45,950 nt of DNA from Promethearchaeota archaeon (GTDB lineage Archaea; Asgardarchaeota; Lokiarchaeia; Sigyniarchaeales; SOKP01), in assembly GCA_016930515.1 (NCBI GenBank), contig JAFGGO010000051.1, positions 1 to 45,950 on the forward strand. The letters run 5' to 3'. This document shows, piece by piece, positions 3,501 through 17,926 of the stretch; the stretch's first letter is position 1; every line of letters begins with the position of its first letter. A program made the position numbers and the translations under genes. The notes under the pieces are model-generated. The model had not been told where the DNA came from. It searched no databases and saw only the letters and a program-made list of their open reading frames with translations.

Positions 3501-5367
3501 CGTCGATCTTGACTTGCCTGGGGGAATTGCGTGGTATGAAAAGACCTCCGGAATTCTTTTAAACGGTTCCTATCCCTTTTATAGTGGTACTTACGAATAT
3601 TCCTTCAATCTATTAAGCACGAACGTGGATGTAGATGTATCAGGAGGAGATGATCCTATCGCTGATTTCATCGCCGTTCCAAACCCCGTTGTATTGGGCA
3701 ATTCCGTTCAATTCATGTTCTCGGGAAATCCTGGTCATGGAACAACAAGGTATACTTGGGACTTCGGCGACACTAGTCCTCTATCGTACGAGCAGAATCC
3801 AATACATATTTATGCTACCCTTGGAACTTACCAGGTAACGCTAAGCATATCCGACTCGAACGGTGGTTTTGATTCAGAGTATAAATACATTCTAGTAGAA
3901 GGAAATTTAATACCCTGTGCTGATTTCTACGCAAACACTACAGTAGTTAGCGTTGGAGAGCCAATCCAATTTACATTCAGCGGAAGCCCGGGAAACGAAC
4001 CCTGTTATTATGTGTGGATTTTTGATGATGGTGGACTTTCTCAAGAAAAAGATCCCGTGTATCAATTCACCACTCCAGGTACTTATAGTGTAGAAGTGTA
4101 TGTATCTGATGTAAATGGTGATTCGGATAATATGTACAAGTCAAACTATATAACAGTATACGCTGGTACCGCATCTCCCGAAGCGGAATTCGAGGCAAAC
4201 TCAACGACCGTTAGATCAGGAGAATATGTGCAATTTACTTTCACTGGAAGCGAAGGGGACGCTCCTGCGACATTTTTCTGGGACTTTGGCGATGGTCTGT
4301 GGTCTGATGAGAAAAATCCCGTGCATCAATATATGAGTATTGGTAGTTATACGGTTTCTTTAGAAGTATATGATTCGGACGGCGACTTGGCCTACGAGGA
4401 AAAGAATCCATATATCATAGTTTATACTGGTACCAGTTATCCCATGGCAGACTTTATTGTAAACACAACGACTATAAATCCAGGAGAATACGTGCAATTT
4501 ATTTTCACGGGAAGCGAGGGAGACGCTCCTGCGACATTCTTCTGGGACTTTGGCGATGGTGGATGGTCTGATGAGAAAAATCCCGTGCATCAATACACGA
4601 GTACTGGTAGTTATATGATTTATCTAGAAGTATATGATTCGGACAATGATTACAATTATAAGATAGAATATGATTTCATAAGGGTAGTTGAAGAAATCTT
4701 ACCCATAGCTGATTTCTATGCCAATACAACCACAATCGTTGAAGATGAATATGTGAGGTTCATATTCAATGGCACCATGGGAAACGCTCCGGCAAGCTAT
4801 ACTTGGGATTTTGGTGATGAAACACCAGTTATCGCAACATCATCTCCAATAATAGACCACACATACACTTCAACTGGAACTTACACAATAACCTTATTAA
4901 TCACTGATGCGGACCTTGATAATGATATTAAAATCAGAATTGACTATATTACGGTTCTTGAAGATCACTTTCCCCTAGCGGATTTTCATGCAAATTCAAC
5001 AATGATCAATCCTGGAGAATTCGTTCAATTCACCTTTAATGGAAGCGAGGGTGATGGTCCAGCAATTTACATGTGGAATTTTGGAGATGGAATTACGATC
5101 TCATACGAACAAAATCCCATCCACCAATACACCTCAGAGGGCGTTTACAATGTGACTTTAACGGTTATTGACTCAGATGGTGATTCTGATCAAGAAGTAA
5201 AATATTTCTATATGATCGTTATTAACGAAGATCGCGATATTACCGTTCCAAGATTCGACTTGATCACCGTTTCAGGATTCGACTTGATCATCGTTCTGGG
5301 CGCTACATCGCTCATTGGATTAATTCTCGTCGTTATAAGGAGAAAATATGGATTCGATTTTCAATAA
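508..5367 (+). CDS. C25 (gingipain-like) cysteine peptidase with propeptide, about 6 PKD domains and a C-terminal membrane anchor
   Basis: N-terminal hydrophobic signal and propeptide-like GKPQLPYKTLQVLVP. C25 motifs YDYVIIT, YVLLGGD, SDLYYA, VGRAP, with catalytic-type NHLGH and SQGC. Six W(D/N/I)F(G/D)D PKD repeats, then a TM helix followed by RRK. Confidence 0.9.
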   Translation: MKRNSIKKIKPKTLALGSFLILFLFMNTVIMFFPPSVMAKPFKGVYEGNLNEVEDKTDQINLYSQRTRTLEFEVSSENIDISELIAPNGELCNRITLKDANGLGQAGKPQLPYKTLQVLVPFGYELKDIEFDLRQSNIEFLQHKLEASSQKMILGSDETPEYKFDSYIYGSNNLFPGNYYSVEGVYGLRGYQILVLNLFPVQYIPSENKLLIVKDMRVKINLEKDVNLVVEDSLLRGFNKDEEMVLLMVQNPEDITSYRNILSSTLDLPPASYDYVIITNDALKNSGGAYTFQDLADYKNSIGISTTIVTVEDIYANYSGVDNQEKIRNFIIDAYNEWGIEYVLLGGDGDGTPGGDSIIPTRGFYDGQVGDTNVPSDLYYAALDGNWNDDGDSYWGEIGEEDLYAEVYVGRAPVDSEQELSNFIMKTLAHETTSDAYLSEALMLGEYLGSHFGIPWGGASKDEVKDGSTNNGYETVGFPPEYNMSTLYDRDLDPYEWDSSDLIPILNSGVHVINHLGHANVNTVMKMTISEVDSLVNDKYFFVYSQGCYCGAFDNRSDYGYYYDFDCIVEHFVTSEHGAFAFVANSRYGVGDAYGTNGPSQFFDRQFFDAIFNESIVEIGRANQDSKHDTIPFLSQDYVRFCYYELNLFGDPTANLLPQPNEIAPILTSESVAPKKGYQDTQITFRVNYTDSDNNAPSKIHVIINGTKYNMEKQDQSDKNYTDGCMYQLTTYLQSASNNYSYFFQCSDGKFMVSTAEYDDIEILYSNAMAPSLSNSQLNPPQGYTNATTFEYAITYTDPDNNAPSSVNVTIDSSSTFEMIKQDPLDDNYIDGCLYRYSTTFENAGIHDYSFSCSDGVYYYQTGTESGPDVEVLILPFDGMYINYMFTLRGNEVLSRFEYSYQDDSTFLVNWMIYDPMISGWYLSSSYEIDVETRLMKVVYDGGINFGNYHTPMWIYPNVLVGDLVPIAVDGEGDHDFLVSEEKSVYIQQFGDVDIFELVDLDLPGGIAWYEKTSGILLNGSYPFYSGTYEYSFNLLSTNVDVDVSGGDDPIADFIAVPNPVVLGNSVQFMFSGNPGHGTTRYTWDFGDTSPLSYEQNPIHIYATLGTYQVTLSISDSNGGFDSEYKYILVEGNLIPCADFYANTTVVSVGEPIQFTFSGSPGNEPCYYVWIFDDGGLSQEKDPVYQFTTPGTYSVEVYVSDVNGDSDNMYKSNYITVYAGTASPEAEFEANSTTVRSGEYVQFTFTGSEGDAPATFFWDFGDGLWSDEKNPVHQYMSIGSYTVSLEVYDSDGDLAYEEKNPYIIVYTGTSYPMADFIVNTTTINPGEYVQFIFTGSEGDAPATFFWDFGDGGWSDEKNPVHQYTSTGSYMIYLEVYDSDNDYNYKIEYDFIRVVEEILPIADFYANTTTIVEDEYVRFIFNGTMGNAPASYTWDFGDETPVIATSSPIIDHTYTSTGTYTITLLITDADLDNDIKIRIDYITVLEDHFPLADFHANSTMINPGEFVQFTFNGSEGDGPAIYMWNFGDGITISYEQNPIHQYTSEGVYNVTLTVIDSDGDSDQEVKYFYMIVINEDRDITVPRFDLITVSGFDLIIVLGATSLIGLILVVIRRKYGFDFQ
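4241..4644 (+). repeat. Near-identical intragenic duplication of PKD modules 3 and 4
   Basis: About 4241-4380 versus about 4505-4644, 264 bp apart. Both encode FTGSEGDAPATFFWDFGDG.WSDEKNPVHQY with few nucleotide differences. Confidence 0.85.
5242..5289 (+). repeat. 24-bp tandem duplication in the sorting-signal region (TVPRFDLI / TVSGFDLI)
   Basis: accgttccaagattcgacttgatc followed by accgtttcaggattcgacttgatc (22 of 24 positions identical). Confidence 0.9.
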
Positions 5368-13134: not shown

Positions 13135-13677
13135 ATGATTTTGATGAGTATAAAAGTTATGGCATTTGTACCGTTAGAGGAGACCTTTAAATTTAGTGGT
13201 ACTACAAAAGCTCTCGGTGTTTTGATAGCAAGCACGGTAACAAGTGTGATTCTTTTACTTATTATTTATCCGTTCGTAAACGATTATGACTCGTTTTGGC
13301 TGGGAAGTGCATTTCTACTCCTGCCCCTTGCCTTAATAGGTGCCGTTTTTTTGATAAACTTTCTCTTTCAAGTTATTAAATGTACTTATAAAAAACCATC
13401 AAGTTCCTGCCATTCTGGTCAACCATCGGGAAAAAAATCGAGTAAGAAGATCAGTATTAAATTAAAAATAAAAATTTCGCTTGGAGGTACTAGTGTAACT
13501 GGTGGAACCATAAGTTTTTGGTTTTTTTCCGATATAACTGCAAATATAGGAGATGTATTGTCGTTTTGGGCTGGTGTGGGTTTCTGGGTATTATGTATTG
13601 TTATTGCAATTGGTTATTTCTGCGTTGTTTTCGAGGTTAGATGTTGGTTCGTAAAACCTTCAAGTAGTTGCCATTAA
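13135..13677 (+). CDS. Membrane protein with an internal repeat; each half ends in C-x3-KPSSSCH
   Basis: Several hydrophobic segments. DSFWLG...KCTYKKPSSSCH versus LSFWAG...RCWFVKPSSSCH. Confidence 0.7.
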   Translation: MILMSIKVMAFVPLEETFKFSGTTKALGVLIASTVTSVILLLIIYPFVNDYDSFWLGSAFLLLPLALIGAVFLINFLFQVIKCTYKKPSSSCHSGQPSGKKSSKKISIKLKIKISLGGTSVTGGTISFWFFSDITANIGDVLSFWAGVGFWVLCIVIAIGYFCVVFEVRCWFVKPSSSCH

Positions 13678-13781: not shown

Positions 13782-14993
13782 CTATATTATATTCAAATCC
13801 TTCCCAATTTTCGTGATAATATCAAGTGCTAAATCGACAAGCTCATCGTTCATGGTTGCCATACATGATGTTCTAAGCATTTCACGGCCTATTGGGACGG
13901 CTGGAGATCGAATTGGGTTGGTAAATACGCTAGTAGGCGTTTCTTTAAAGAGTTTATTGAAATATTCGAACATTTTCAGCTTATTACCAATAATAATCGG
14001 GATTATCGCTGATTGAGAACATCCTATGTGAAAACCTGCTTCTGAAAGTCCTTTCCTCATTCTTTCCGAGATCGATAGTAGCTTTTTTTGATATCCATCG
14101 TCCGATTCGATAATATCTAGCACGGCTAAAACCGTGGCGCAGACGGAGGGTGGTGGTGAGGCTGAAAAAATGAACGATCGAGCGTTGTGCTTTATCCAAT
14201 TGCAAATTTCCTCGCTTCCTGCAACGAATCCTCCAATACTCGCAAAACTCTTTGAGAAAGTCCCCATGATCATGTCTATATTTTTTTGACAACCTAAATG
14301 ATGACAAGTTCCCCTACCGTGGTTTCCTAAAACCCCCAATCCGTGAGCGTCGTCTAAATAAATCAGGGCATCGTAATCTCCTGCTAAATCCACAATATGA
14401 TCTAAAGGAGATACATCGCCCTCCATTGAAAATACGCCTTCGGTAATTATAATGCCCCTGCCTTTGGGGATCAGCTTAAGCTTAGCTTCGAGATCCTCCA
14501 TGTCACAATGTTCGTAAATTAATTTGTGTTTTTGACTTATACCCCCTAACTTAACCCCGTCGATGATCGAGGCGTGATTAGCCTTATCGGAAATTACCCA
14601 CTCGTCTTCTTCGGTTAGAATGGAAGAAATCGCTCCGAGATTTGCTTGCATGCCCGTTGAAAAAACAACGCTCTGCTCACACCCTAAGAATCTGGCTAAA
14701 CGCTTTTCTAATTCGAGATGTAATTCCATGGTCCCATTTAATAGGCGTGAACCCGTAGTTCCAACCCCATATTCCTCAATGGCGTGCATTGCCTTTCTTT
14801 TTACATCGGGATGAGATGTCATGCCAAGATAATTATTGCTACCAAGCATGAGAACGTCTCTGTTATCCATTACGACTCTTGGATTTTGTTCGCCTTCGAT
14901 CTTAAAGAAATAAGGATAATAATGGAGTTTTTTAGCAAGTGTCGGGAGGCCTTCCTTCCAAAAACTCTCAAATTTTCGTTTAATTTCGTTCAT
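13782..14993 (-). CDS. PLP-dependent alpha-oxoamine synthase, serine palmitoyltransferase-like (bacterial SPT type)
   Basis: YPYF, GSNNYLG, GSRLLNGT, NHASIIDG, GVFSMEGD, DDAHGLGVLG, GTFSKS (PLP lysine), RSFIFSAS. Confidence 0.85.
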   Translation of the reverse strand: MNEIKRKFESFWKEGLPTLAKKLHYYPYFFKIEGEQNPRVVMDNRDVLMLGSNNYLGMTSHPDVKRKAMHAIEEYGVGTTGSRLLNGTMELHLELEKRLARFLGCEQSVVFSTGMQANLGAISSILTEEDEWVISDKANHASIIDGVKLGGISQKHKLIYEHCDMEDLEAKLKLIPKGRGIIITEGVFSMEGDVSPLDHIVDLAGDYDALIYLDDAHGLGVLGNHGRGTCHHLGCQKNIDMIMGTFSKSFASIGGFVAGSEEICNWIKHNARSFIFSASPPPSVCATVLAVLDIIESDDGYQKKLLSISERMRKGLSEAGFHIGCSQSAIIPIIIGNKLKMFEYFNKLFKETPTSVFTNPIRSPAVPIGREMLRTSCMATMNDELVDLALDIITKIGKDLNII

Positions 14994-15191: not shown

Positions 15192-16229
15192 TCAAGAGCG
15201 AAGGAAGCACTGAAGATCCTCTCCAAACTCGGAATTAGTAAGCGCCTTGGCAATAGCCCGACATCCTCCACAAGTCGTAATGTGCTTGCAATTCCCGCAT
15301 TTTCCCTCGTAGTCATCCCGGTTTCGAAAAGCGATCATGCATGGAGAATTCCATAGTGTTTCAAAAGTATCGGTTTTAATATTGCCAATTACCGAGTTTA
15401 ACCTGCGACACGGCATGACGTCTCCGTTTTCCACGACGCAAATGCCGCTGATTCCGGCGCTACACCCGTGGGTGACGTTCTCACCACAATAAGTAGTCCA
15501 AAGTGGATCGTGCAACGCAAAACGAATAAATTTTCCGTATTTTTTATTTATTTTTTTGATCTTCTTAAAAACCTGTTTAAGCTCGTCTTTCGACAATATT
15601 TGATCTTTTAACAATATCCCATTGCCCTCTGGAACCAATCTTCCGAACGAAAATTCATTAGCACCATGAAGGATAGCGTGTCGAACGATCCCCTCAATAT
15701 CTTTGGAGTTCCACCTTCCAAGCGTTGTCATGATAGTCGTGAATAATCCTGCTTTTGAGCATTCTTCGATACCCTTGGTTGCCTTTTTAAACGAACCAGG
15801 ACCGCGAATAAGATCGTGAGAGGATTCCAAACCGTCAATGCTTATTTGAGCGATATTTAATCCCGCACCAACTAACTTTCTTACCTTGTATTCGGTAATT
15901 AGCGTTCCATTTGAAAGTATCATTGTTACTAAACCAAGATTTCTTGCGCTTGAAATATAATCGTATAAATTTGGATCCAATAGGGGTTCTCCTCCCGTAA
16001 AATAAATTTTTCCCTTCCATCCAAAACCTTTAACAAAAGACTGAAATTTTTCAATTATTTCAAATATTTCGTTAGGTTTGAGAAGATTTATTACTTTATG
16101 CTCTAATCCTCTCTCGTAGCAATGCGCACATCTCAAATTGCACTTATTATTGATGTGTAATTGCAAGTAAAACAAGTTTCTTGACTTGATTGTTTTTTGA
16201 GAACAATTCTTTTCACTATATCCTATCAT
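15192..16229 (-). CDS. Radical SAM/SPASM domain protein (peptide/protein maturase type)
   Basis: CNLRCAHC, FTGGEP, QISIDG. SPASM cysteines CSAG...GDVMPC...CGNC-x5-CGGC...DLQC. Confidence 0.92.
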   Translation of the reverse strand: MIGYSEKNCSQKTIKSRNLFYLQLHINNKCNLRCAHCYERGLEHKVINLLKPNEIFEIIEKFQSFVKGFGWKGKIYFTGGEPLLDPNLYDYISSARNLGLVTMILSNGTLITEYKVRKLVGAGLNIAQISIDGLESSHDLIRGPGSFKKATKGIEECSKAGLFTTIMTTLGRWNSKDIEGIVRHAILHGANEFSFGRLVPEGNGILLKDQILSKDELKQVFKKIKKINKKYGKFIRFALHDPLWTTYCGENVTHGCSAGISGICVVENGDVMPCRRLNSVIGNIKTDTFETLWNSPCMIAFRNRDDYEGKCGNCKHITTCGGCRAIAKALTNSEFGEDLQCFLRS

Positions 16230-16260
16230 TCTTATCCATCTTTTCCTCTAATGTAATTAT

Positions 16261-16303
16261 TTGATTATGGATTTTTAAAAAAATCCAATTGAATAAAAAT
16301 CAA
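16261..16303. promoter_or_regulatory. Inverted repeat / hairpin between the Gly-Cys-tail gene and the rSAM gene
   Basis: TGGATTTTT-AA-AAAAATCCA at 16268-16287, with outer arms TTGATT (16261) and AATCAA (16298). Confidence 0.45.
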
Positions 16304-16304
16304 T

Positions 16305-17267
16305 TCATCCTCCACATCCTCCGCATCCCCCTCCACCTCCTCCACCTCCTCCACACCCTCCACATCCACTGAAATATCCCAAACTCCTTCTTCTCTCATC
16401 TTTTGCCTGCTCTTTTTCCTTCCATTCCTCAAGCGTTAGCCTGCTATTTCTTATGTGAAGTATCACTTTTACTATAACTACAATTCCAATAAAAGACACT
16501 CCGATGAGGACTAGTAATATGATATAGATACTTACCCAGGGTACCGTTTTCGTGAGGTTCGGCGTGATGTCGAAAGCAAGGCTACTTGAAATCGAATCAG
16601 TTTGAACAAGGGTATACACCCAATAATCACCTTCCTGCTCGAAGCTTGTTTGTCCTGGAGCGGATGTTCGAACTGTTCCAGCATCGTAAGAAGCTGGGAA
16701 ATTGATGGTATATTCTGCTCTACTCACGGGAATGGAAAACTTGCCGAAATTATTGAGAAATAGCTGTGAGCAAGAAAAAGTTTCGATTATCCAGTTTTTC
16801 ATGAGGAAAGACATTGTGATCGTTTTTACCCCTGTAAATTCGGTGTGATAAAACTTGATTTCTATGTAATATTTGTTGTCGCGACCTTCGAATTCGCTAT
16901 AATCCCAATTTAACTGGGATCCTGTATCGTCGTAAACGCGAATGGATGATTCCTGAATCGAAGGTGCATTTCCGAGTGGAAAGTATCCGGGTGGTCGAAA
17001 TCGTTTATAACCCTCGTATTTCGTTCCGCTCGTGACATTATAAGTAATACTCACTCGAGCCAGAACATCAAGATCGTAAATTTCTAAATACACCTCGTAA
17101 TTAGATATTGTATAAACCGAATCGGCCAAGCGAATCGCTTCCTCTTCTTCAATTATATCATGCTCTTGGGTAATTATTTGCGCTGCGACCAAACTTGGAG
17201 CAAGAAGCGGTATCAATAACAAGAAAAATCCACTAATTACTTTCTTTATTGAACTATTTCTTAACAA
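16305..17267 (-). CDS. Single-pass membrane protein (DUF2207-like ectodomain) with a cytoplasmic GCGGC-G9-CGGCGG tail
   Basis: TTG start with SD-like AGGTGG, signal peptide, beta-rich ectodomain, TM helix (WVSIYIILLVLIG...), charged linker, then a Gly/Cys tail resembling those of TIGR04222-type proteins. Confidence 0.8.
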   Translation of the reverse strand: MLRNSSIKKVISGFFLLLIPLLAPSLVAAQIITQEHDIIEEEEAIRLADSVYTISNYEVYLEIYDLDVLARVSITYNVTSGTKYEGYKRFRPPGYFPLGNAPSIQESSIRVYDDTGSQLNWDYSEFEGRDNKYYIEIKFYHTEFTGVKTITMSFLMKNWIIETFSCSQLFLNNFGKFSIPVSRAEYTINFPASYDAGTVRTSAPGQTSFEQEGDYWVYTLVQTDSISSSLAFDITPNLTKTVPWVSIYIILLVLIGVSFIGIVVIVKVILHIRNSRLTLEEWKEKEQAKDERRRSLGYFSGCGGCGGGGGGGGGCGGCGG

Positions 17268-17465: not shown

Positions 17466-17926
17466 TTGTCAAATCCTATGCTTAATGTGGATCTGTCCCT
17501 TCTTAGTCCTGCTACTATCGAGGACCTTGATCTCCTTGCTCAAATGAACGAAGAATTTCGTAAAGCCGAACGAGCCGACGACGATATGACTATCGAAGAA
17601 ATAAAGTCCCGGATGCGATCGATTATGGAAGAAGATGCTTTTTGCGTGTATTTACTTGCCAAAGAGGATGATATTTACGGATATACCGTCATCGATCTCT
17701 CTCGAAAACGGGATTATCTTCGTCATCTCCTAATTCGTGAAGAATACCGAAAATGCGATACGGAAAGCGGCTAATCCAATTAATGATGCAAAATCACGGA
17801 ATATCTTCCTTGGAAATCGATGTTTTCGTTTGGAACGAGGAGGCCATCAAATTTTACGAGAAATTAGGCTTTACCAAGCGATGTTATCAAATGCGTTTAA
17901 GTTCCTCTTCAAAACGCCAAGATTAA
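17466..17926 (+). pseudogene. GNAT acetyltransferase with a 1-bp frameshift
   Basis: Inserting one G at about 17757 restores motif A (EYRKCGYGKRL) and continues EIDVFVWNEEAIKFYEKLGF to TAA 17924-17926. Confidence 0.85.

Follow-up and report, generated by a model that had tools for sequence, protein, structure and literature searches.

Does a radical enzyme of an Asgard archaeon act on the cysteine- and glycine-rich tail of the membrane protein encoded directly before it? The question is raised by two genes in the 45,950-nt stretch of contig JAFGGO010000051.1 that we analysed (hereafter the window; assembly GCA_016930515.1, Promethearchaeota archaeon), which comes from an Asgard metagenome-assembled genome of 4.0 Mb that is 94% complete. 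A preliminary description of this DNA had pointed out a membrane protein ending in GCGGC-G9-CGGC-GG and, beginning 75 bp downstream on the same strand, the gene for a radical S-adenosylmethionine (rSAM) enzyme with a SPASM domain, an arrangement borne out by the open reading frames (ORFs), the DNA and Pfam searches. The membrane protein, to which we refer as the carrier (ORF 16305-17267(-), 320 amino acids (aa)), begins with a signal segment, which is followed by a DUF2207-N ectodomain of beta structure, a single transmembrane helix, a basic linker and the tail, and its C-terminal end reads ...RRRSLGYFSGCGGCGGGGGGGGGCGGCGG. It is the only one of the 17,734 ORFs of at least 40 aa in the genome with a Gly/Cys/Ser-rich, Cys-bearing C-terminus, the sole DUF2207 gene found by a genome search, and the neighbour of the only rSAM of its clade in that genome. 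Functional coupling of the SPASM enzyme to the tail, which is probably its substrate, is strongly supported by the sequence comparisons described here, and we consider it fairly probable that the two genes form an enzyme-substrate cassette in which the enzyme modifies the cytoplasmic tail of the carrier.

Conservation of the pairing between enzyme and tail

Starting from the enzyme, a database search returned a clade of about 21 proteins with 45-71% identity, nearly all labelled as Asgard archaea (Promethearchaeota, Hodarchaeota, Sigynarchaeota, Lokiarchaeota or Odinarchaeota), beyond which identity was 41% or lower. Upstream DNA was available for 12 members of the clade, window included, and 11 of these have a (CGG)n-tailed gene directly upstream of the rSAM gene (the window, L122, L125, L015, L126, L016, L128, L095, L123, L096 and L124). 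The spacing between the two genes ranges from an overlap to 75 bp, and the flanking genes vary between loci. The carriers occur in a short form of 289-323 aa and a long form of 570-630 aa with a DUF2207_C/TIGR04222 region scoring below the cut-off, and L095 and L123 have two tail genes each. The ectodomains of both forms are clearly homologous and have the motifs GxKxxGFKRF and AEYxIxFP in common (alignment A2); the region preceding the tail shows only a common richness in Gly and Ser, and the sole universal element of the carriers is the tail itself, typically ending in CGGCGG-COOH. The exception in this forward test was L017 (labelled Tiddalikarchaeum), in which a 55-aa ORF (4692-4859) beginning MTSGGGCGCGCGE, a small GGGCGCGCG peptide, lies directly before the rSAM gene, with an ABC transporter gene farther upstream. 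The Gly/Cys motif is at the N-terminus of this ORF, whereas it is at the C-terminus of the tailed carriers. Among the 61 family genomes sampled first, a close rSAM and a carrier co-occur in G000 and G025 only. The G025 pair (rSAM 57% and carrier 41% identical to those of the window) shows the same order, the same 75-bp gap and the tail ...SSGGCGGGCGGCGG; a larger sample of the phylum added G227 as a third family genome with the pair.

In the reverse direction, we searched 400 genomes of the phylum with a DNA pattern encoding C-G-G-C-G-G-stop, using the reversed pattern as a control. The pattern occurred 14 times and the control twice. Nine of the occurrences close long ORFs, and all nine are followed by an rSAM homologue (31-100% identity) that starts within about 100 bp downstream. 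The remaining five are frames of 17-49 codons with no rSAM within 1.5 kb. Two of these frames, in L141 (G056) and L142 (G029) of one genus, have a common 17-codon sequence, ...KAHNY(L/V)HKCGGCGG-stop, which may be due to chance or represent an unrecognised micro-ORF. The pairing of carrier and rSAM is thus beyond chance, the adjacency of rSAM homologues and GCGG-tailed genes, a check suggested by the preliminary description, was recovered across genomes in both directions (11 of 12 and 9 of 9), and close homologues of the enzyme do have tail-bearing neighbours.

When 45 rSAM sequences, drawn from all loci, were placed in a maximum-likelihood tree, four well-supported tail-linked clades emerged: that of the window (11 tail-bearing loci and L017; 12 rows, support 100/99), a second Asgard clade that includes a fusion (6 rows, 99/98), a Nitrospirota and metagenome pair (2 rows, 97/93), and a Clostridium clade with five cultured species, one further Clostridium isolate and one Asgard genome (10 rows, 100/100). 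Good support does not extend to the deep branches of this tree, and the tail link may have arisen once or several times. The pairing is kept over 27-71% rSAM identity and across domains of life. In a separate rSAM clade (7 rows, 100/100), Cys-rich peptides of 57-79 aa occupy the same upstream slot. The Clostridium loci (L019-L028, L111 and L113) encode a TIGR04222-like membrane protein of about 300 aa with the tail ...CSSCSSCGGCGGD and an rSAM/SPASM enzyme 27-33% identical to that of the window; the distance between the two translationally coupled genes is -88 to +2 nt. The cultured species with a pair are C. carboxidivorans P7, C. puniceum DSM 2619, C. cavendishii DSM 21758, C. chromiireducens DSM 23318 and C. 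muellerianum P21.

The fusion was found on metagenome contig Ga0190313_1000976 (L100:2444-5056), where a single 870-aa ORF joins a DUF2207-like carrier, a tail (...GGGICFGCTGCSACGGCGSCGGCSSCG) and an rSAM/SPASM enzyme. A representative of the protein library (P0149, 851 aa) has the same C-terminus. As the close relative L099 has carrier and rSAM as two overlapping genes in different frames, the fusion in L100 could reflect a sequencing frameshift or a one-base assembly error.

Sequence searches for carrier homologues were swamped by low-complexity words (5 matches; only the query when limited by region), and a profile of the ectodomain was used instead. This profile retrieved only 82 representatives among 1.84 billion proteins, most of the full-length ones ending in Cys/Gly(/Ser) tails. 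The neighbourhoods of two of these distant homologues were inspected. P0165 (Logan SRR33118839) has the tail ...CGGGGCGGGCGG and is followed by genes for an MNIO (PF05114) and an SCO6045_C protein, with no rSAM; in the other, P0142, the downstream gene is cut. Across the carriers, the architecture is DUF2207-N only, DUF2207 N plus C, or TIGR04222 only. L136 is a true TIGR04222 member (108 bits), and the long-form and Clostridium carriers score below the cut-off. We rejected the possibility that an MNIO acts on the tail in the window, as no MNIO gene was found in the host genome and control genomes were positive in the same search.

Enzyme class and the probable role of the tail

The enzyme scored well above the cut-offs of both of its domain families (Radical_SAM, PF04055, 85.7 bits versus 29.5; SPASM, PF13186, 39.8 bits versus 21.5), and its AlphaFold2 (AF2) model consists of alternating strands and helices. 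The hallmark of the radical SAM superfamily, a CX3CX2C motif for the SAM-binding [4Fe-4S] cluster within a partial TIM barrel, takes the form C30-x3-C34-x2-C37 in the enzyme. In its SPASM region, the residues C256...G269-x4-C274, C311-x2-C314-x5-C320-x2-C323 and C341 are invariant in 19 sequences (alignment A1). Judged by this motif, it is predicted to have a full SPASM domain with three [4Fe-4S] sites; the last spacing of the central block is CX2C, as against CX3C in the SPASM motif for two auxiliary clusters, CX9-15GX4C...CX2CX5CX3C...C. A recognition element of ribosomally synthesised and post-translationally modified peptides (RiPP recognition element, RRE) would require some 80-110 aa ahead of the rSAM core. 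In the enzyme this core starts near residue 20, which leaves too little sequence for an RRE: the alignments with SkfB and CteB set in at residues 112 and 98 of these two proteins, respectively, and at residues 21-23 of the enzyme, and in the AF2 model residues 1-16, before the first strand, are disordered only. The nearest folds to this model were SkfB, PqqE, SuiB, CteB, anSME, TigE and ChlB, and thus, as far as the model goes, the closest folds are those of peptide- or protein-modifying SPASM enzymes.

No curated NCBIfam family reached its cut-off. The best model for the enzyme was the ACGX rSAM (TIGR04340), with 190 bits versus a cut-off of 400, followed by NirJ2 (TIGR04055, 185 bits), AhbD (TIGR04545, 173 bits) and SbtM (TIGR04082, 154 bits). 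ACGX was also the best model for nearly all tail-linked homologues scanned (141-203 bits); it was narrowly outscored in the Nitrospirota homologue, for which SbtM and AhbD were slightly higher, and in Clostridium L019, for which TIGR04053 was half a bit above. We looked for true TIGR04340 members as a reference for the tree and found none among the relatives or in 14 control genomes, so the relation of the enzyme to genuine ACGX enzymes can be read from hidden Markov model scores only.

The preliminary description had placed the tail in the cytoplasm, and our prediction agrees. In a rough hydropathy scan, two segments of the carrier, residues 10-28 and 247-265, stood out as hydrophobic, and three Lys/Arg residues directly follow the second. 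From hydropathy and the positive-inside rule rather than a dedicated predictor, the 55-residue C-terminus is predicted to be cytoplasmic, and a published topology analysis likewise places the Gly/Ser-rich C-termini of DUF2207 proteins intracellularly (PMC10457818).

On the reading that we favour, the carrier would be a type-I membrane protein with an extracytoplasmic beta domain of about 200 aa and a flexible cytoplasmic tail ending in CGGCGG-COOH, and the cytoplasmic, RRE-less enzyme would bind this low-complexity tail directly, not via a leader peptide. The 5'-deoxyadenosyl radical would abstract a hydrogen atom and the tail cysteines would be cross-linked or oxidised, preferably through thioethers between Cys-S and Gly C-alpha (-2 Da each), since nearly all non-Cys residues of the tail are glycines, which offer C-alpha as their sole carbon acceptor. 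Radicals at this position of glycine are chemically favourable, as glycyl radical enzymes illustrate. Tail composition (Cys and Gly) is the one feature that points to such sactionine-type links, which we put forward tentatively. The floppy tail would in this way become a compact, possibly metal-binding knot at the inner face of the membrane. Somewhat speculatively, these features may be those of an unnamed, ACGX-like, RRE-less rSAM/SPASM family that cross-links Cys to Gly C-alpha in the cytoplasmic (CGG)n tails of membrane proteins of the DUF2207/TIGR04222 type by recognising the repeat. A complex prediction for the rSAM and carrier residues 262-320 gave a score of 0.01 and was used neither for nor against these proposals.

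Several observations weigh against modification of the tail. The CxxC pairs in a Gly-rich tail would also fit a plain metal- or Fe-S-binding site, and in the L100 fusion the tail could be a mere linker. The number of cysteines per tail varies from 3 to about 10, which is at odds with a single defined product. The enzyme lacks an RRE and the carriers a conserved leader, the spacer between the genes (16230-16304) holds T-runs and an AT-rich palindrome, and some rSAM relatives of similar identity are without a tail or peptide neighbour (L014, L022, L023, L102/L112 and L131). In addition, loci L133-L146 were selected by their tails and were counted in the reverse direction only, not in the forward test. 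One part of the earlier proposal, in which the charged linker of the carrier was to act as leader of a membrane-tethered substrate, is not supported. Conservation of this linker is limited to some of the relatives of the short form, L016, L123 and every long form lack it, and the enzyme is without an RRE, all of which weakens a leader role. The other part, the tail as substrate, is favoured by the adjacency, the nine of nine in the reverse test, the fusion form, the peptides of the sister clade and the MNIO found in the same slot.

Two alternatives deserve weight. The first is that the tail is a partner and not a substrate, binding a metal or Fe-S cluster or tethering the rSAM to the membrane while the enzyme acts elsewhere, for instance on a lipid or small molecule. 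The resemblance of CGGC...CGGC to a rubredoxin or zinc-knuckle ligand set, the position of the L100 tail as a linker between membrane protein and enzyme, and the lack of an RRE or leader would all suit this view, as would the second-best PDB sequence match, the lipid-modifying GDGT-MAS (49.7 bits, rSAM core only). The small soluble Cys-rich peptides in the same slot of sister clades, however, cannot serve as anchors, the tail alone is constant while carrier architecture varies, and the number of its cysteines is not fixed. Moreover, an unrelated Cys-modifying enzyme, the MNIO, replaces the rSAM behind the distant carrier P0165, and the full-length fold matches are peptide modifiers. On balance we regard a mere partner role as unlikely.

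The second alternative keeps the tail as substrate and changes the chemistry, to an anSME-like oxidation of Cys to formylglycine or to a Cys-derived heterocycle or thioamide that would be a functional parallel to the thiooxazole formed by MNIO enzymes on related tails. The enzyme resembles anSME in being RRE-less, in its length (about 350 aa) and probably also in the eight conserved Cys of its SPASM region, and anSME is among its top folds. SbtM, named as a thio(seleno)oxazole-modification maturase, gave 154-170 bits and was the top model for the Nitrospirota homologue, and an MNIO stands in the same slot behind P0165. Nevertheless, the sulfatase motif of anSME substrates (C/S-x-P/A-x-R) is absent from the tail, the scores of SbtM and the other families are far below their cut-offs, and the characterised SPASM enzymes with Cys-rich peptide substrates most often form thioethers (established knowledge; PMC13692751). 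Chemistry of this kind is improbable, to about the same degree as a partner role.

Finally, an AhbD/NirJ-type enzyme of alternative haem or haem d1 synthesis with a meaningless adjacency to the tail gene, a possibility that the preliminary description had also raised for Ahb, NirJ or PqqE cofactor enzymes and that the NirJ2 and AhbD scores close to that of ACGX and the label 'AdoMet-dependent heme synthase' on some homologue entries might suggest, was rejected as very improbable, since the AhbD and NirJ2 scores are far below the 500-bit cut-offs and that of PqqE was not reached either, neither AhbC/AhbD above the cut-off nor a siroheme decarboxylase domain (PF17805) was found in the genome (control genomes positive), the tail-linked Clostridium homologues give no NirJ2 match at E<=1e-40, and tail adjacency is conserved across phyla.

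Gene anatomy and neighbouring genes

Coordinates of the carrier, the enzyme and their parts are collected in the table. The DUF2207 N-domain (PF09972) of the carrier scored 32.7 bits against a cut-off of 24.4, and Pfam and NCBIfam scans found no match to TIGR04222 or to the multi-transmembrane domain DUF2207_C (PF20990) in the 320 residues (cut-offs 43 and 33 bits). The AF2 model of residues 1-265 shows an all-beta ectodomain flanked by two helices. Its nearest solved folds were the N-terminal beta domains of M1 aminopeptidases/LTA4H, ITIH1 and ribophorin I, a subunit of the oligosaccharyltransferase (template modelling (TM) scores 0.4-0.5), and the modelled ectodomain is thus a generic sandwich that is uninformative on function.

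Features of the carrier-rSAM locus, in window coordinates (pLDDT, predicted local distance difference test)
Feature	Coordinates	Strand	Basis
Carrier gene, type-I membrane protein with Cys/Gly tail, 320 aa	16305..17267	(-)	ORF list; Pfam DUF2207 N-domain over cut-off
N-terminal hydrophobic segment (residues 10-28), signal peptide or anchor	17184..17240	(-)	Hydropathy scan; AF2 helix 7-17, then disordered stretch
Extracytoplasmic all-beta DUF2207-N domain (residues 54-219)	16611..17108	(-)	Pfam; genome search; AF2 pLDDT >90
Single transmembrane helix (residues 247-265)	16473..16529	(-)	Hydropathy 3.14; AF2 helix 244-264
Basic/charged linker, predicted cytoplasmic (residues 266-300, including EEWKEKEQAKDERRR)	16368..16472	(-)	Sequence
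Tail GCGGC-G9-CGGC-GG (residues 301-320), proposed substrate	16308..16367	(-)	Sequence; stop codon 16305-16307
AT-rich intergenic spacer, 75 bp, with palindrome GGATTTTTTTAAAAATCC	16230..16304	(-)	DNA
rSAM/SPASM enzyme, 345 aa, without RRE	15192..16229	(-)	Pfam, NCBIfam; AF2 pLDDT 84
CX3CX2C rSAM cluster motif (C30, C34, C37)	16119..16142	(-)	C37 invariant, C30/C34 at least 90% conserved in alignment A1
SPASM region, seven invariant Cys (C256, C274, C311, C314, C320, C323, C341) and near-invariant C264	15207..15464	(-)	Alignment A1

In line with the preliminary description, the ORF list of the window holds no small Cys-rich ORF near the cassette that could be a separate precursor. A sigma-70 promoter and terminator scan of the locus remained at background level; the model is bacterial and not applicable to an archaeon.

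The genes around the pair differ between loci. In the window, the rSAM is followed by an alpha-oxoamine synthase gene (13782-14993(-)) whose best match is serine palmitoyltransferase (434 bits versus a cut-off of 640). Apart from the window, only the 71%-identical relative L122 has this gene behind the rSAM, and the gene lies outside the conserved cassette. On the other side, two consecutive short ORFs (17466-17926(+), 102 and 57 aa) resemble a frameshift-split GNAT acetyltransferase; L122 and L124 have intact acetyltransferase genes in the vicinity of the cassette. A 180-aa membrane protein without a family match (13135-13677(+)) consists of two units that each end in KPSSSCH, and we found no link between it and the cassette.

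In four related loci, a gene of the AF_0136_C type (189-211 aa) lies divergently upstream of the tail gene (L015:3324-3893, L016:3246-3881, L125:2246-2815 and L126:2175-2750). The annotation (PF27313) was made in L125 and L126, and the genes in L015 and L016 were assigned to the same type solely because they look alike in size, position and sequence. The N-terminus of the product is ribbon-helix-helix-like and it may be a local regulator; the window has no such gene. A nitroreductase-family gene (PF00881), which could encode an accessory redox enzyme, directly follows the rSAM in L124 (5127-5900) and on the contig of P0004. With the serine palmitoyltransferase-like gene confined to the window and its closest relative, and the other two types to some loci, the case for a conserved third gene of the cassette was weakened.

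Comparison with known systems

If the tail is modified, this would be a further case of RiPP-style radical chemistry on a full-size membrane protein, unusual in having glycine as the sole acceptor, in dispensing with a leader and RRE, and in the occasional fusion of substrate and enzyme. Whole membrane proteins would thereby carry a new type of module, knotted by covalent links and possibly able to bind metal. It would also give a first mechanistic handle on the DUF2207/TIGR04222 proteins, which are widespread and of unassigned function and typically have Gly/Ser-rich intracellular C-termini (PMC10457818). The cultured Clostridium species with related pairs offer an experimental handle on tail modification. 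We found no paper describing the pairing of (CGG)n tails with an rSAM in the literature searched; the concept has close published precedents.

The best-scoring curated model, TIGR04340, describes an rSAM/SPASM protein with adjacent ACGX-repeat peptides, which are presumably about 60 aa long. By this description, the likeness extends to an enzyme of about 340 aa without an RRE and an adjacent low-complexity, Cys-rich repeat. However, the score is under half of the 400-bit cut-off, and the repeat in the window is C-G-G and not A-C-G-x and ends a 320-aa membrane protein instead of a peptide of about 60 aa: the upstream gene encodes the CGG-tailed carrier, with no small Cys-rich ORF nearby. The literature searched held nothing usable on the ACGX system or on SbtM, and ACGX is a computational family for which we found no published experiment.

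Among characterised enzymes, anSME (PDB 4K36-4K39) is likewise RRE-less, has a SPASM domain and a similar size, and modifies a Cys within a whole protein; its fold matches the enzyme model with a TM score of 0.72. The two sequences share only some 18% identity, no sulfatase motif occurs in the tail, and the product of anSME is formylglycine.

Closer in the presumed chemistry are CrpC/CrpA and QhpD/QhpC, in which a SPASM rSAM enzyme places thioethers on Cys of a full-size neighbouring protein. CrpC of Methanococcus voltae, and thus also of an archaeal host, was shown in 2026 to install thioethers on its 28.8-kDa neighbour CrpA (PMC13692751). In contrast to the enzyme in the window, CrpC is a TIGR04463 member that bears an RRE and for recognition relies on an N-terminal region. 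Its partner CrpA is a soluble protein with 17-residue CxxQ/D repeats that are cross-linked as ranthionines, whereas the carrier is membrane-bound and offers Gly as essentially the sole acceptor.

The closest counterpart of the carrier lies in the TIGR04222 membrane proteins with Gly/Ser/Cys tails, which have been proposed as whole-protein substrates of MNIO (DUF692) enzymes (PMC12452194). The preliminary description had likened the tails of such proteins to RiPP precursors; this has a published counterpart, which links them to MNIO and not to rSAM. Common to both systems is an unstructured, Cys-bearing Gly/Ser tail on a membrane carrier encoded just before a Cys-modifying enzyme. Two observations bring them nearer to each other, namely the related carrier L136 as a true TIGR04222 member and the MNIO behind the distant ectodomain homologue P0165. 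They differ in enzyme class, which in the window is radical SAM/SPASM, in a genome in which no MNIO was found, and in their hosts, which are anaerobes here (Asgard archaea, Clostridium, Nitrospirota) and mainly Actinomycetota there. The carrier in the window also lacks the TIGR04222/DUF2207_C part, and its tail is predicted to be cytoplasmic as opposed to periplasmic (PMC12452194). That the family outlined above is the anaerobic counterpart of the MNIO-TIGR04222 system belongs to the same tentative model. The comparison points to two alternative maturases for one class of tail, rSAM enzymes in anaerobes and MNIO enzymes in other bacteria; if the tail is indeed modified, two unrelated enzyme classes would converge on one type of tail in hosts that range from Asgard archaea to Clostridium.

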